Shown here piece after piece: positions 38,331 to 44,968 of a DNA stretch of 64,000 bases (the stretch's first letter is position 1; every line of letters starts with the position of its first letter). The translations under genes were made by a program, and so were the position numbers. Source of the DNA: an uncultured Acidobacteriota bacterium (GTDB lineage Bacteria; Acidobacteriota; Vicinamibacteria; Vicinamibacterales; JAKQTR01); the NCBI GenBank assembly GCA_963700065.1, contig CAVOWJ010000005.1:620953-684952 (forward strand). The letters run 5' to 3'. Under the pieces are notes generated by a model. That model did no database searches. It was given only the letters and a program-made list of their open reading frames with translations, and was not told the origin of the DNA.

Positions 38331-39728
38331 GTGGCTCCTGGCTCCAAGACCGTCCTCGTCGTCGACGACGACGAGGGGATGCGCGACACGCTGACGGCCA
38401 TCCTGCGCCGCGACTACCGCGTGCTGCGCGCGGCCACGGGCGAGATCGGGCTGTCCATCCTCGACCGCGAAACCGTGGACGTCGTGCTGCTCGACGTGCG
38501 GCTGCCGGGCATGGGCGGCTTCGAGATGCTGCAGGAGATCAGGGAGACGCAGCGCCTCGTCGAGGTCATCATGATCTCGGCCATCAACGAGGTCGAGACC
38601 GCCGTCCGCGCCATGAAGCTCGGCGCCTATCACTACATCACCAAGGACTTCGAGTACGACGCCGTGCTGTCGCTCGTCCGCAACGCGTCGGACCGCACCG
38701 ATCTCCACCGCAAGGTGATGTCGCTGAGCGCCCAGGTGGCCGACGATCGCGACCGGCCGTTCATCACGGGCTCGAGCCGCGCGATGCGCGAGATCCTCGA
38801 CCTGGTGCGCAAGGTGGCCGGCCTCGACACGACGGTGCTCATCCTCGGCGAGAGCGGCACCGGCAAGGAGCTGCTGGCCCGCATGATCCACCGCGAGTCG
38901 GCCCGCGCCGACGGCCCCTTCATGCCGGTCAACCTGGCGGCCATCCCCGCCGACCTGGTCGAGTCGGCGCTGTTCGGCCACGAGAAGGGCTCGTTCACCG
39001 GCGCGGTGCGCCAGCAGATCGGGAAGTTCGAGCTGGCCGACCGCGGCACGCTGTTCCTCGACGAGATCGGCGAGCTGAAACCCGACGTGCAGGCGAAGCT
39101 GCTGCGCGCGATCCAGGAGTCGGAAATCGAGCGGGTCGGCGGCGGCCGCCCCATCCGCGTGAACCTGCGGATCATCGCGGCCACCAACGTCGATCTCGAG
39201 AAGGCCGTGCGCGACGGGCGCTTCCGCGAGGACCTCTACTACCGGGTCAGGGTCATCCCGATGCAGGTGCCGCCGCTGCGCGAGCGGATGGAAGACCTCG
39301 ACGCGCTGGTGACCTTCTTCCTGGGCCGCTACAACACGAAGTTCAGGAAGCAGGTGCTGGGCATCGAGCCGTCCGCCATGGAGGTGCTCGGGGCCTACCC
39401 GTGGCCCGGCAACGTCCGCGAGCTCGAGAACCTGATGGAGCGCCTGGTGGCCGTCAGCGAGGGCGACTGGATCGGCGACGAGGACCTGCCCTACGAGTTC
39501 CACCTGGCGAAGCTCGTCAGGCCCGACGAGACGACCGAGGGCCTCTTCGACCGCGCCTGCGAGACCTTCGAGCGCAACTTCATCCTCAAGACGCTCGAGC
39601 ACGAGCGCTGGAACGTGACGGCCGCGGCCCGCACGCTGGGCATGCCGCTCAGCACGCTCAAGTTCAAGATGGACCGCCTCGATATCCGCCAGATCGCCCG
39701 CAAGCTCCGCCGTGCAGGCCCGGCCTGA
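38331..39728 (+). CDS. Sigma54-dependent response regulator (NtrC family: REC, AAA+, Fis HTH)
   Basis: [15 protein letters not shown]...[13 protein letters not shown]. Walker A GESGTGKE. Sigma54-contact loop [11 protein letters not shown]-terminal [26 protein letters not shown] start with GAAAGGA upstream. Confidence 0.9.
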
Positions 39729-40002
39729 CCCTTGCAGGCTGCGTGGGTCAGCGACGAATCTGAACCTTGGGGGCGTCGCAGAAACTGCAACGGGTGTCTC
39801 GCTCTGATGTGGCAGCTGCCGCCACGTGTCTCCATTGTGGACACCGACGCGCACGGGCGTCTGCTGGCAGGATGCACCCACCATTCACGAGGCGCTTTCG
39901 CGTCATAATCGCTGCGTTCAAAGGGTCTCGTCGGCACGCGGCGCGCGGCGGCCCGCAGGGTCCGGCCGCCCCGGCCGGGGCTGCAGCCCCTCCCGCCGCC
40001 GC

Positions 40003-43184: not shown

Positions 43185-44968
43185 GCACGCTGCGCGTCCG
43201 CTTCGCGCTGATGCTCGCCACGGCCGCCGTGGTGCCGCTGCTCACGTACGGGGCGGTCTCGGTGTACTCCCTGCGCGAGAGCACGCGGCGCACGGTGACG
43301 GAGGGCAACATCAACCTCGCGCGGCAGGTGGCCGAGCAGGTGCGCCGCTATGTCGCCACCAACCTGCAGATTCTCGACGCGCTCGCCGCCGATCTCGACA
43401 GCACGGGGCTCGATGCGGCGCAACAGGATCGGATTCTCAAGAACTACGTCCTCCGCTTCCCGGAGTTCCGTGAACTGACGGCGTTCGACGCCGCAGGGCG
43501 CCCCGTGGCCACCAGCCGGCTGGGCGCGCCAGGCGTCCGCATCCCCGGCGCCGACGCGGTCGACCTCTACGGCGCCCGGATGTCGCCGGTGCACGTCGAC
43601 GACGACCTCCTGCCCACGGCGCTCGTGGCCGCGCCGGTCGGCCGCGGCGGCAGGCAGGCTGGCTGGCTCGTCGGCGAGTTCAGCATCGAGGAACTGTGGC
43701 GCCTGACCGGGCGCATCCGCGTGGGCGCGTCGGGCTACGTCATGGTGGCGGACCCGCGCGGCGGCCTGCTGGCCCACGGCAATCCCGAGCAGCGCTCGAC
43801 CGTTGCGCGCGGCGAGAGCCTCGCCGGTGACCCGATCGTGAAGGCGCTGCTCGGCGCCGCGCCCGGGACGCCGCAGGTCGTCGAGCGGCAGGGCCGGGGC
43901 GGCGTGCCCGTGGTCGCGGTCGGCATCCGCGTGCCGGAACTCGGCTGGATGGTGCTGGTCGAGCAGCCCGCCCGCGAGGCGTTCGCCGCGGCGCGCCGCC
44001 ACGAGCGTGATCTCATCGCGGCCATCAGCCTCGCGCTGCTCATCATGCTGCTCGCGGGCCTGGTCTGGGGCCGGTCGCTCATCCAGCCGATCCGCGAGAT
44101 CATCCGCGGCACCGAGGCCATCGCGGACGGCCGGCTCGACGAGCGCGTCCGCGTCACGACGAAGACCGAGCTGGGGCGGCTCGGCGAAGCGTTCAACACG
44201 ATGGCGGGCCGCCTCGGCGAGCTCCAGGAAGACGTGCGGAAGCAGGAGCGCCACGCCATGTTCGGCCGCGTGGCCGCGGGCCTGGTCCACGACCTGTCGC
44301 ACCCGTTCAAGAACGTCCAGAACAACTGCCGGCTCGTCGTCAAGATGCACGACGACCCGGAATACCTCGAGCTGTTCAAGCGCACGACCGACCGCGAGTT
44401 CGCCCAGGTCAAGCGCGTGTTCGAGGATCTCCGCAACATCGCGCGGCCGATGCCGATGGAGCGCTTCCCGCTGGACCTGAACAAGCTGGTGTCGGACGTC
44501 GCGGAGTCGATGCGCGCCAACGCGTCGGCCGCGGGCCTGACCATCGACCTGGATCTCGCCGCTGACACCCTCTACGTCGAAGGCGACATGTTCGCCCTGA
44601 GCCGCGTGTGCCGCAATCTCATGATGAACGCGATCGAGGCCACCGCGCCGAACGGGCGCATCACCCTCAGCACCGCCTCCGAGAACGGGCGCGCCGTGCT
44701 GCGCGTCGCCGACACGGGCTGCGGCATCCCGGCCGACCGGCTCGACACGATGTTCGAGGACTTCAATACGACGAAGCGCCAGGGCCTCGGCCTGGGCCTG
44801 GCGATCACGAAGAAGATCGTGGATCAGTCGGAAGGGACCATTGCCGCCACGAGCGTCGTGGGCGCGGGCACGACCTTCGCCGTGTCGCTTGCACGGGCCC
44901 CAGCGCCGGCGGAGGGAATTCCCGGCGAGCCTGGCGGCGAGCCGGCCGACTGGCCGGCGCCGGTGTAG
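43181..44968 (+). CDS. Sensor histidine kinase (TM, Cache-like periplasmic domain, TM, HAMP, HisKA, HATPase)
   Basis: The ATG overlaps the SBP stop (ATGA 43181-43184). HAMP IQPIREIIRGTEAIADGRLDERV. H-box AAGLVHDLSHPFKN. N/G boxes NLMMNAIEA, VADTGCGI and GLGLGLAI. Confidence 0.9.
   Translation: MSTLRVRFALMLATAAVVPLLTYGAVSVYSLRESTRRTVTEGNINLARQVAEQVRRYVATNLQILDALAADLDSTGLDAAQQDRILKNYVLRFPEFRELTAFDAAGRPVATSRLGAPGVRIPGADAVDLYGARMSPVHVDDDLLPTALVAAPVGRGGRQAGWLVGEFSIEELWRLTGRIRVGASGYVMVADPRGGLLAHGNPEQRSTVARGESLAGDPIVKALLGAAPGTPQVVERQGRGGVPVVAVGIRVPELGWMVLVEQPAREAFAAARRHERDLIAAISLALLIMLLAGLVWGRSLIQPIREIIRGTEAIADGRLDERVRVTTKTELGRLGEAFNTMAGRLGELQEDVRKQERHAMFGRVAAGLVHDLSHPFKNVQNNCRLVVKMHDDPEYLELFKRTTDREFAQVKRVFEDLRNIARPMPMERFPLDLNKLVSDVAESMRANASAAGLTIDLDLAADTLYVEGDMFALSRVCRNLMMNAIEATAPNGRITLSTASENGRAVLRVADTGCGIPADRLDTMFEDFNTTKRQGLGLGLAITKKIVDQSEGTIAATSVVGAGTTFAVSLARAPAPAEGIPGEPGGEPADWPAPV

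Follow-up and report, generated by a model that had tools for sequence, protein, structure and literature searches.

A block of five genes at positions 38331-44968 (plus strand) of a stretch of contig CAVOWJ010000005.1, from an uncultured soil Acidobacteriota bacterium of the order Vicinamibacterales, has the make-up of a peptide-sensing regulatory module. The whole stretch analysed, 64 kb in length, is called the window below. The sequence and its translations show that the five genes, all read in one direction, encode a response regulator, a peptide maturase of the radical S-adenosylmethionine (SAM) type, a 30-codon open reading frame (ORF), a solute-binding protein (SBP) and a sensor histidine kinase. 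We propose that the module is built on a ribosomally made, enzyme-modified mini-peptide and that the product acts as its own signal, a proposal for which we consider the balance to be about level. The regulatory wiring is well supported by sequence comparison, and so, strongly, is the first step of the circuit, the predicted action of the regulator on a sigma-54 promoter. That the modified peptide itself is the ligand, making the circuit autoinducing, we infer from gene content and conservation. A preliminary description of this DNA, made from the letters alone, had already drawn the five co-directional genes as one block, and every element is found where it had been placed, nearly to the base.

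With the frame-corrected maturase (see below) as query, thousands of relatives are found, Acidobacteriota predominating. A scan of GTDB with one genome per species gives 381 species positive for the Vicinamibacterales-type maturase, the best 80 of which were examined as loci (handles beginning with L denote individual loci). Nearly all of these 80 carry Vicinamibacterales or Acidobacteriota labels; three labelled otherwise are probably mis-binned. The order regulator-maturase-SBP-kinase is kept in essentially all of them that have enough contig, the regulator orthologues (63-87% identical) lying immediately 5' of the maturase. L082, in which no regulator is detectable, is an exception. Within the order the flanks are syntenic as well, with genes for lipoamide dehydrogenase (E3), E2, LipB and an extracytoplasmic function (ECF) sigma factor upstream and for HU, QueF and Smr downstream. 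Because these housekeeping flanks are also kept, relatives outside the order were examined.

An exhaustive profile search places the whole Vicinamibacterales maturase family in one 50% cluster (861 bits) and the next full-length relatives at about 375 bits. Eight such outgroup relatives, with 35-44% maturase identity, were inspected directly; the proteins of their contigs are labelled Deltaproteobacteria, Syntrophobacterales, Nitrospirae/Nitrospiria or Bacteroidales, and some contigs are unlabelled metagenome sequences. Seven of the eight loci have the maturase, a small ORF and an SBP_bac_5 gene in this order, and in all six of those with enough downstream sequence a dCache/HAMP kinase follows. 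A sigma-54 regulator is adjacent in four and a TonB-dependent receptor in five of the eight. A further sample of 80 metagenome loci was counted on non-redundant loci with enough sequence. Here a family-5 SBP gene lies directly 3' of the maturase in 42/56 loci, the kinase is then present in 26/29, a sigma-54 regulator occurs in 16/23, and 13/23 with enough upstream sequence have a TonB-dependent receptor. The gene order recurs at 35-50% maturase identity on contigs labelled Nitrospirota, Deltaproteobacteria/Syntrophobacterales and Nitrospinota and on unclassified ones. Most SBP-positive loci also have the peptide (31 by a first pattern, and nine more when nine misses were read frame by frame), and none was seen with the patterns used in SBP-negative loci. 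Among the 14 loci that lack an SBP are those with the most distant maturases. The association between maturase, SBP, kinase, sigma-54 regulator and short downstream ORF, on which the preliminary description had made its reading depend, holds in the Vicinamibacterales and across phyla; by the measure of gene order, the module is an old, cross-phylum unit.

The precursor-like ORF (MKVKVLKGAKKAPSREMCPWMITVPPESGK; 41485-41577, plus strand) starts inside the maturase stop codon, in an ATGA overlap, with the Shine-Dalgarno sequence AGGAGGAG ahead of it. It reads as a leader (MKxKVxK...) followed by a core (C-P-W-M-I...). The ORF and its ribosome-binding site are as first described, and comparison adds that they belong to a conserved family with an invariant cysteine. 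Members lie 3' of the maturase in 77 of 87 loci, in one to four copies, most of the ten misses being truncated contigs or slight variants. The cysteine is present in all 109 unique sequences. The second position after it is Trp in 85 of the 109 and mostly Phe in the rest, with a few Ala, Tyr and others, and hydrophobic or aromatic residues occupy positions +3 and +4. A Lys-rich, strand-like segment (MK-x-x-V-V-KK(G)) forms the N-terminus. The family also recurs in other phyla. Since peptides from outside the Vicinamibacterales end 5-6 residues past the cysteine (CWWYIGR, CAWFVST, CGWYAR, CFWYLYV), the functional core, to judge from these sequences, must be the short aromatic stretch that follows it. 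Vicinamibacterales peptides carry an extra tail, in which position +5 is mostly D/E; the window's clade has T/C/A/S/G at +5 and then VPPE. Ten peptides searched against NCBIfam and Pfam find no match even at E<=10. The amino acid sequence is conserved in spite of DNA divergence, and the peptides are a real family.

Two variations on the peptide gene are seen among relatives. In L034 (9603-10095), L056, L063, L071, L076, L077 and L080, two to four nearly identical precursor genes stand in tandem, about 130-150 nt apart; the window has a single copy. In addition, at least 18 Vicinamibacterales loci have a second conserved short ORF between the maturase and the precursor gene (for example MKNDKKETDKKKGTLRPWLVDVAVEHLR), which is absent from the window's clade. 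Examples lie at 9450-9536 in L065, 9461-9547 in L063, 9462-9548 in L056, 1575-1661 in L052, 3681-3764 in L042 and 9611-9691 in L015. The second ORF (...GTLRPWLVDV...HLR) has the PWLVDV core in common with the precursor and an Arg at the position of the invariant cysteine; its N-terminus is Lys-rich as well but differs from that of the precursor. Possible roles are those of a decoy, of an antagonist or of a second substrate.

The maturase gene (40045-41488, plus strand) codes, once a single extra G at 40287 is removed, for a radical SAM-SPASM protein with a predicted RiPP recognition element (RRE), RiPP denoting a ribosomally synthesized and post-translationally modified peptide. Membership of the radical SAM superfamily is given by PF04055 (62.5 bits against a cut-off of 29.5) and the motif CNFACDYC, and membership of the SPASM family by TIGR04085 (46.8 bits against 27, residues 282-480); the Pfam SPASM model PF13186 gives no match at E<=0.01. 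The cluster cysteines C103-x3-C107-x2-C110 are invariant in the family alignment, and so is the SPASM set C369-x13-G383-x4-C388, C426-x2-C429-x5-C435-x3-C439 and C455. In an AlphaFold2 model of moderate confidence (predicted local distance difference test score, pLDDT, 65.7) the N-terminus is a beta-beta-beta-alpha-alpha-alpha unit (strands 7-11, 17-21 and 26-30, helices 32-42, 53-64 and 72-87; block-mean pLDDT 65-85), so that residues 7-87 seem to adopt the RRE topology. No PqqD/RRE profile matches the protein. Its N-terminus does align with those of TIGR04463, FlmE/OhkG and CefB, and a Foldseek search with the full-length model returns CteB (5WGG/5WHY) at the top, then TigE, SuiB, ChlB and SkfB, of which CteB, TigE and SuiB bear an RRE.

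The best named family is the geopeptide maturases (TIGR04280), of which the protein is not a member (263.9 bits against a cut-off of 400); the cross-phylum relatives, at 247-319 bits, are also sub-threshold. The next hidden Markov model families, TIGR04463, CefB, FlmE/OhkG, Clo7bot, PapB, nif11, QhpD, CcpM and SCIFF, are all maturases of Cys-containing peptides, and the enzyme falls below the cut-off of every named NCBIfam family. Several assignments were rejected. Membership of SCIFF (TIGR03974, 80.7 bits against 425) and of PapB (NF047865, 113.1 against 340) fails by score, and the precursor here has a single conserved cysteine. Scores for the mycofactocin, PQQ, His-Xaa-Ser and KxxxW types are all far under their cut-offs. 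An anaerobic sulfatase maturase is excluded by 58.4 bits on TIGR03942 (cut-off 349) and by the lack of a sulfatase gene in the block. The earlier assignment to a RiPP-type radical SAM/SPASM maturase with an RRE-like N-terminus, and not to the sulfatase-maturase type, is thus supported. CteB, the thioether-forming SCIFF maturase, is the nearest solved structure both by sequence and by fold. Since the nearest structures and model families are thioether enzymes and the precursor cysteine is invariant, a Cys-derived thioether cross-link in the short core is the predicted modification, and such chemistry would fit the closest enzymes, CteB and PapB.

The one-base correction near 40287 that had been called for corresponds to one extra G in this sequence. 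The maturase is read in frame +1 up to 40286 and in frame +2 from there on, and the uncorrected frame is truncated after the RRE. A DNA alignment shows that the G is absent from L001, L002 and L003. The block is 97-98% identical to L001 and L002 at the nucleotide level where aligned, with this base as the sole indel in about 5 kb, and the maturases of these two loci are intact and 98% identical in protein. Deletion of the G yields ...ERAALESYFAAF... (...ALESYFAAF...), the same as in the intact 480-residue homologues. If the G is a sequencing error the maturase is intact in this genome; if it is not, the circuit fails at the step of the enzyme. It is possible, although we tend to doubt it, that the second case applies, the insertion being a true mutation, the maturase a pseudogene and the module one that is decaying and non-functional here. 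The insertion is, after all, present in the window, missing from three close relatives and truncating. On the other hand, 400 downstream codons stay open, the corrected protein is 98% identical to intact homologues from end to end, and no damage is seen in the promoter, the hairpins or the remaining four genes. Moreover, the miscalling of GG for G is a common assembly error.

The regulator gene (38331-39728, plus strand) encodes an NtrC-family response regulator, that is, a sigma-54 bacterial enhancer-binding protein (bEBP). Pfam finds REC (PF00072), Sigma54_activat (PF00158, 230.8 bits), AAA_lid and HTH_8 (PF02954). The phospho-acceptor D55, a Walker A motif and the loop GSFTGA (residues 220-225, nt 38988-39005), a variant of GAFTGA, are all present. 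The features that define the NtrC-family bEBP response regulators, a REC domain with its Asp, an AAA+ domain with a GAFTGA-type loop and a C-terminal helix-turn-helix, are therefore all found in one protein, as had been claimed from the loop. Its best NCBIfam matches are AtoC and NtrC, all under the cut-off.

A predicted -24/-12 promoter of the sigma-54 type, CGGAACGCCCCTTGCA (40003-40018, plus strand; GG at 40004-5, GC at 40016-7), lies in the 316-nt spacer between the regulator and maturase genes. It sits 26-27 nt ahead of the maturase ATG at 40045, with transcription predicted to start near 40028-40030. This GG-N10-GC candidate had been noted at the same place, and it proves to be phylogenetically conserved beside the bEBP gene. 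The strict pattern YGGHAY-N5-TTGCW matches twice in the 64-kb window against 0.24 matches expected. It is found in 64 of 75 Vicinamibacterales regulator-maturase spacers and in 27 of 45 outgroup regions upstream of the maturase; most of the other Vicinamibacterales spacers come close to the pattern. Conversely, it has no match in 334 kb of coding DNA from the same loci and none in 29 kb of maturase-SBP gaps. A second sigma-54 promoter ahead of the peptide or SBP genes was sought and found in none of 74 loci. The second match in the window, CGGAATAATCCTTGCT (33835-33850, minus strand), stands in an AT-richer spacer, some 50 nt upstream of the ECF sigma gene (33135-33785, minus strand). It was rejected as a member of the regulon, being conserved in the closest relative L003 only (1 of 32 loci).

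Upstream of the promoter, alignment of the spacers reveals conserved palindromes. The first, GTCGCAGAAACTGCAAC (39775-39791; GTTGCAG-N3-CTGCAAC, a 7-3-7 repeat), is kept in the window's clade amid divergent flanks, and a second, GTGGCAGCTGCCGCCAC (39809-39825; GTGGCA-N5-TGCCAC), is conserved in the same alignment. These are candidate enhancer sites, or upstream activating sequences, 1 and 2, to which the regulator presumably binds. An inverted repeat GTGTCTC-N5-GGACAC (39826-39844) forms a third conserved element, seen in most of ten aligned spacers. Other Vicinamibacterales clades (L010-L082) have GGCCAA-N4-TTGGCC in place of the window's GTTGCAG-N3-CTGCAAC in 43 of 77 spacers, an exchange which suggests that the DNA specificity of the regulator has shifted between clades. 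Taken together, promoter and palindromes have, by sequence, the layout to be expected where an enhancer-dependent sigma-54 promoter lies beside the gene of its activator.

A GC-rich genome yields many spurious ORFs, such as a 583-codon shadow ORF at 39826-41577, and it might be thought that chance has produced the short ORF and the GG-N10-GC motif as well, the maturase acting on some other substrate, for instance the SBP itself. We regard this as extremely improbable. The amino acid sequence of the ORF is kept in the 77 of 87 loci mentioned above and recurs in other phyla, the promoter motif shows the distribution just described, and the maturase has a predicted leader-binding domain of the RRE type. 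Conservation effectively refutes a chance ORF or a chance promoter. The arrangement is not accidental, since gene order, short ORF and promoter motif have been kept in the genomes of about 80 species and in more than one phylum. The shadow ORF (plus strand) runs in another frame over the maturase and enters the frame of the peptide ORF; it is an artefact of high GC and no gene, and comparable shadow ORFs lie over each gene of the block.

The SBP gene (41679-43184, plus strand) follows the peptide ORF after a gap of 101 nt and encodes a family-5 protein (peptide/nickel/opine type; PF00496, SBP_bac_5, 205 bits) with an uncertain start codon. In correction of the preliminary description, no canonical start follows the hairpin that occupies the gap (see below) until TTG 41679. 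Between 41535 and 41700 the SBP frame of the window contains a good signal-peptide n-region, RAWLRRSVPR, that reads through the palindrome, with no ATG, GTG or TTG before TTG 41679; in L003 (9463-9700) the stretch from the peptide gene to the SBP's lipobox Cys has no canonical start at all. From these observations, either a non-canonical start codon or a very short signal peptide would be used. The N-terminus is lipoprotein-like (...LSAFAC), and signal-like hydrophobic N-termini ending in Cys are present in nearly all orthologues, so the SBP is probably a lipoprotein facing the periplasm. No ABC (ATP-binding cassette) permease or ATPase gene is found in the block or in any related locus examined. 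It appears, then, that the SBP is a family-5 member by fold that is not part of an importer. Its nearest solved relatives are GsiB/YliB, NikA, AgaA, AccA and AppA, cluster-C proteins whose ligands are glutathione, nickel chelates, opines and peptides, and its best NCBIfam matches are nickel and glutathione binders.

The SBP stop (43184) overlaps the ATG of the kinase gene (43181-44968, plus strand) in a second ATGA, as had been reported, and the overlap is also found in L085, L088 and L089, which are Nitrospirota loci. Translational coupling of the two genes is strongly supported by this arrangement. The kinase has a first transmembrane segment, a periplasmic dCache domain (dCache_1, PF02743), a second transmembrane segment, HAMP (PF00672), an H-box (HDLSHP at residue 370) and HATPase_c (PF02518), the features of sensor histidine kinases with an extracytoplasmic dCache; the Pfam HisKA model does not match it. 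AtoS is its best NCBIfam match. Because the kinase resembles AtoS and the regulator AtoC/NtrC, the two are a plausible cognate pair.

It is the ligand of this sensor that divides the possible readings. SBP, kinase and sigma-54 regulator may sense an unrelated external cue (an oligopeptide, an opine, a glutathione-like thiol or a metal chelate), the modified peptide being only an output such as an antimicrobial, stress or redox peptide. The known binding habits of GsiB/YliB, NikA, AccA and AgaA and the nickel and glutathione matches just cited would suit such cues, and the lack of a conserved exporter and the terminator-like hairpin that parts the output genes from the sensor genes point the same way. 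Sensors of generic cues, however, are usually exchanged far more freely, whereas peptide, family-5 SBP and dCache kinase stay paired across phyla at 35-50% maturase identity, and the most distant maturase relatives lack both SBP and peptide. The SBP is, furthermore, the fastest-evolving part (mean distance 0.65), and the peptide core diverges fast as well. A covariation test of peptide against SBP, a partial Mantel test controlled for the regulator, did not discriminate. In it, divergence of the SBP correlates with that of the peptide core (r 0.35, p 0.001), and the leader correlates more (0.48); given the higher value for the leader, the result was discarded as evidence for binding of the peptide by the SBP. 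On balance we think a response to an unrelated cue unlikely, while taking it as a serious contender.

TonB-dependent receptor genes (plug and barrel) bear on the same question. In other phyla they usually lie between the sigma-54 regulator and the maturase; examples are at 2445-4391 in L085, 5616-7574 in L088, 14150-16015 in L087, 5534-7522 in L089 and 4845-6371 in L083. Their presence in the loci of many relatives fits a ligand that would arrive from outside. It is also what would be expected if the product were a metallophore-like shuttle in the manner of methanobactin, a shuttle which would be secreted, loaded with a metal or other cargo, re-imported through a TonB receptor and bound by the SBP, the kinase then reading cargo availability and not cell density. 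In methanobactin operons the gene for a RiPP precursor stands with those for MbnT, a TonB transporter, and MbnE, a family-5 SBP, and the SBP here resembles nickel/metallophore binders (NikA, CntA). We consider a shuttle quite improbable all the same. A single Cys in an aromatic, hydrophobic core makes a poor metal-binding set, the examined loci contain no inner-membrane importer, MbnB/MbnC-type enzymes or metal-responsive regulators, and the window's own block has no TonB receptor, so that the pairing of receptor and SBP on which the comparison leans, seen in 13 of 23 outgroup loci for the receptor, is one that belongs to relatives only.

A strong hairpin (41620-41682, plus strand; free energy -43.2 kcal/mol, z -6.7) folds between the peptide and SBP genes and contains a perfect 32-nt palindrome at 41636-41667. 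Relatives have hairpins of different sequence at the same offset after the peptide gene, and the distant loci L083 and L085 have canonical stem-plus-U terminators there. The element in the window may be an attenuator or may stabilize the transcript. The preliminary description had taken the genes for a single tight block; this holds for their layout, and, given this hairpin, a single operon is not established. Because the hairpin follows the peptide gene and no sigma-54 motif precedes the SBP gene, it is the maturase and peptide genes that stand out in the sequence as clear sigma-54 targets. The SBP and kinase genes are probably expressed by read-through, from a promoter of their own, or both. 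Separate expression would suit a sensor that must pre-exist its signal.

The proposed autoinducing circuit, whose steps of modification, export, binding and transcription are drawn from composition and conservation, would run as follows. The maturase would bind the Lys-rich leader (MKxKVxKK) through its RRE and use the invariant Cys of the C-P-W core to form an intramolecular cross-link of the thioether type. The small product would leave the cell and re-enter the periplasm, in many relatives through the TonB-dependent receptor encoded at the locus. There the binding lipoprotein would capture it and switch the kinase. The phosphorylated regulator would then drive sigma-54 transcription of the maturase and peptide genes, giving product-dependent positive feedback. 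The hairpin 3' of the peptide gene would keep maturase and precursor transcripts high relative to those of the sensor genes, which probably have basal expression.

However, it must be noted that several observations weigh against an autoinducing circuit. The maturase is frameshifted in this window. As the syntenic housekeeping flanks indicate, co-occurrence inside the Vicinamibacterales is partly a matter of vertical inheritance. No conserved exporter or leader peptidase is found in the block or its flanks, an absence from the block that the preliminary description had itself entered as a caveat; an M14 peptidase downstream is conserved in 13 loci only. The TonB receptor is absent from the Vicinamibacterales loci, the window's block included. 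The closest solved relatives of the SBP bind glutathione, nickel chelates and opines besides peptides, and its correlation with the peptide is not specific, since fast-evolving parts may simply track each other. The terminator-like hairpin that sets the peptide gene apart from the SBP and kinase genes leaves feedback on the sensor genes not established. Finally, the Cys-less second short ORF of many relatives would go unexplained by a simple Cys-cross-link model.

Comparison with known systems brings out which features are shared. The geopeptide maturases have the same RRE-radical SAM-SPASM layout, and TIGR04280 is the best-scoring family both for the maturase here (263.9 bits) and for its cross-phylum relatives (273-319 bits); the maturase nonetheless stays below the family cut-off of 400, and the short peptides match no NCBIfam model. 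NCBIfam lists TIGR04280 as a 'hypothetical equivalog', and a full-text literature search found no function or regulatory wiring for the family. The CteB/SCIFF and PapB-type ranthipeptide/sactipeptide maturases share the domain order, a Cys-containing precursor and related model families, CteB being the closest structure. Those systems have several precursor cysteines and belong to clostridia, whereas here there is one cysteine, the hosts are diderm phyla, and a family-5 SBP, a kinase and a sigma-54 regulator are added.

For the circuit itself the nearest parallels come from elsewhere. Nisin and subtilin are RiPPs that signal to their own two-component systems (NisK-NisR, SpaK-SpaR), and the logic proposed here from genomic association would be the same, from modified peptide to kinase to regulator to its own biosynthetic genes. 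In those systems sensing by the kinase is direct, the host is monoderm, the promoters are of the sigma-70 type, and lanthionine synthetases and dedicated exporters are employed. Here, in contrast, there are a periplasmic binding lipoprotein, a sigma-54 bEBP and a radical SAM enzyme, and a dedicated exporter is lacking. The gating of kinases by binding proteins is established for LuxP-LuxQ-LuxO of Vibrio, for ChiS with its family-5 chitin-oligosaccharide binder and for AioX-AioS-AioR; LuxO and AioR are sigma-54 enhancer-binding response regulators, and the sensor of LuxQ is a double-PAS (dCache-like) domain. In LuxP-LuxQ, ChiS and AioX-AioS, as is proposed here, the membrane kinase answers to a periplasmic binding protein that has no part in transport. 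Their ligands, however, are small molecules or sugars from unrelated pathways, none of them a RiPP encoded alongside the sensor. LuxP and AioX fall into different SBP clusters, and on the LuxO model, whose cut-off is 800 bits, the regulator here reaches 312.8. Seen beside these SBP-gated kinases, the unusual feature in the genomic record is the steady association with a RiPP maturase and its precursor.

Methanobactin (MbnA, MbnT, MbnE) combines, as many relatives of the present locus do, a RiPP precursor, a TonB transporter and a family-5 SBP with no obvious ABC partner. It differs in its MbnB/MbnC chemistry, its FecIR-type sigma/anti-sigma control and its role in copper acquisition, whereas the present module has a radical SAM-SPASM enzyme and a kinase plus sigma-54 regulator, and the core of its peptide is aromatic with a single Cys. 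Among the neighbours there are no MbnB/C-like genes, and membership of the methanobactin type was rejected. A full-text literature search (geopeptide; radical SAM/RiPP with sigma-54, SBP, kinase, TonB or quorum sensing) found no description of the system, in agreement with the initial impression that it was not a recognised one. The parts are of known kinds; as far as we can tell, the combination of a radical SAM RiPP, a family-5 lipoprotein, a dCache kinase and a sigma-54 activator, often with a TonB receptor, across diderm phyla is uncharacterised.

A few further features surround the block. It ends in a terminator-like nested inverted repeat (44985-45055; free energy -44.9 kcal/mol, z -4.8), which lies where the kinase gene and the HU gene (45056-45388, minus strand) converge. 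Scans for Rfam families and for sigma-70 and terminator consensus sequences in the block gave nothing useful. At 46229-46271, at the start of the M14-peptidase ORF (46149-48848), the window has 33 nt fewer than L001, spread across about 40 bases; this is the sole further indel in 7.2 kb of alignment. Among the outgroup loci, an ORF of about 71-77 residues (...YYR...IIDD...LPA.IYSR), absent from the window and with no Pfam match on record, is conserved 3' of the kinase (13344-13577 in L087, 13476-13706 in L090, 12304-12519 in L084). Behind the kinase gene, L085 (region 12115-15030), L088 (region 13162-16153) and L089 (region 13053-14186) encode a REC-HisKA-HATPase protein, which in L085 and L088 is followed by a REC-GGDEF-EAL protein, a neighbour hinting at output into c-di-GMP signalling.

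The wider meaning depends on the identity of the ligand. Modified-peptide signalling through two-component systems is textbook knowledge for Gram-positive bacteria, and diderm bacteria are usually thought to use small-molecule autoinducers; to our knowledge, such peptide signalling is essentially undescribed in diderms. We tentatively raise the possibility, which we do not hold to be probable, of a widespread RiPP-based cell-to-cell signalling system in diderms (Acidobacteriota, Nitrospirota, Desulfobacterota and others), with the present locus as its type locus, in which an aromatic hexa- to dodecapeptide cyclised by a radical SAM enzyme would be released, taken up again through TonB receptors and read by the lipoprotein and dCache kinase, the sigma-54 activator amplifying the signal. 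If this is true, it would be a peptide quorum-sensing route in diderms. The locus would also hold a new radical SAM cross-link on a single Cys whose structure could be solved, and a compact switch inducible through sigma-54. Should the peptide be an output and nothing more, its locus nonetheless marks out a RiPP family that has no name so far and that comes with a clear regulator, a promoter and a candidate sensor. At the species level the module spans hundreds of genomes, from soil and sediment lineages that are abundant and yet poorly cultivated, and if its product is the ligand, these groups would have a directly testable peptide autoinducer or re-uptake signal.

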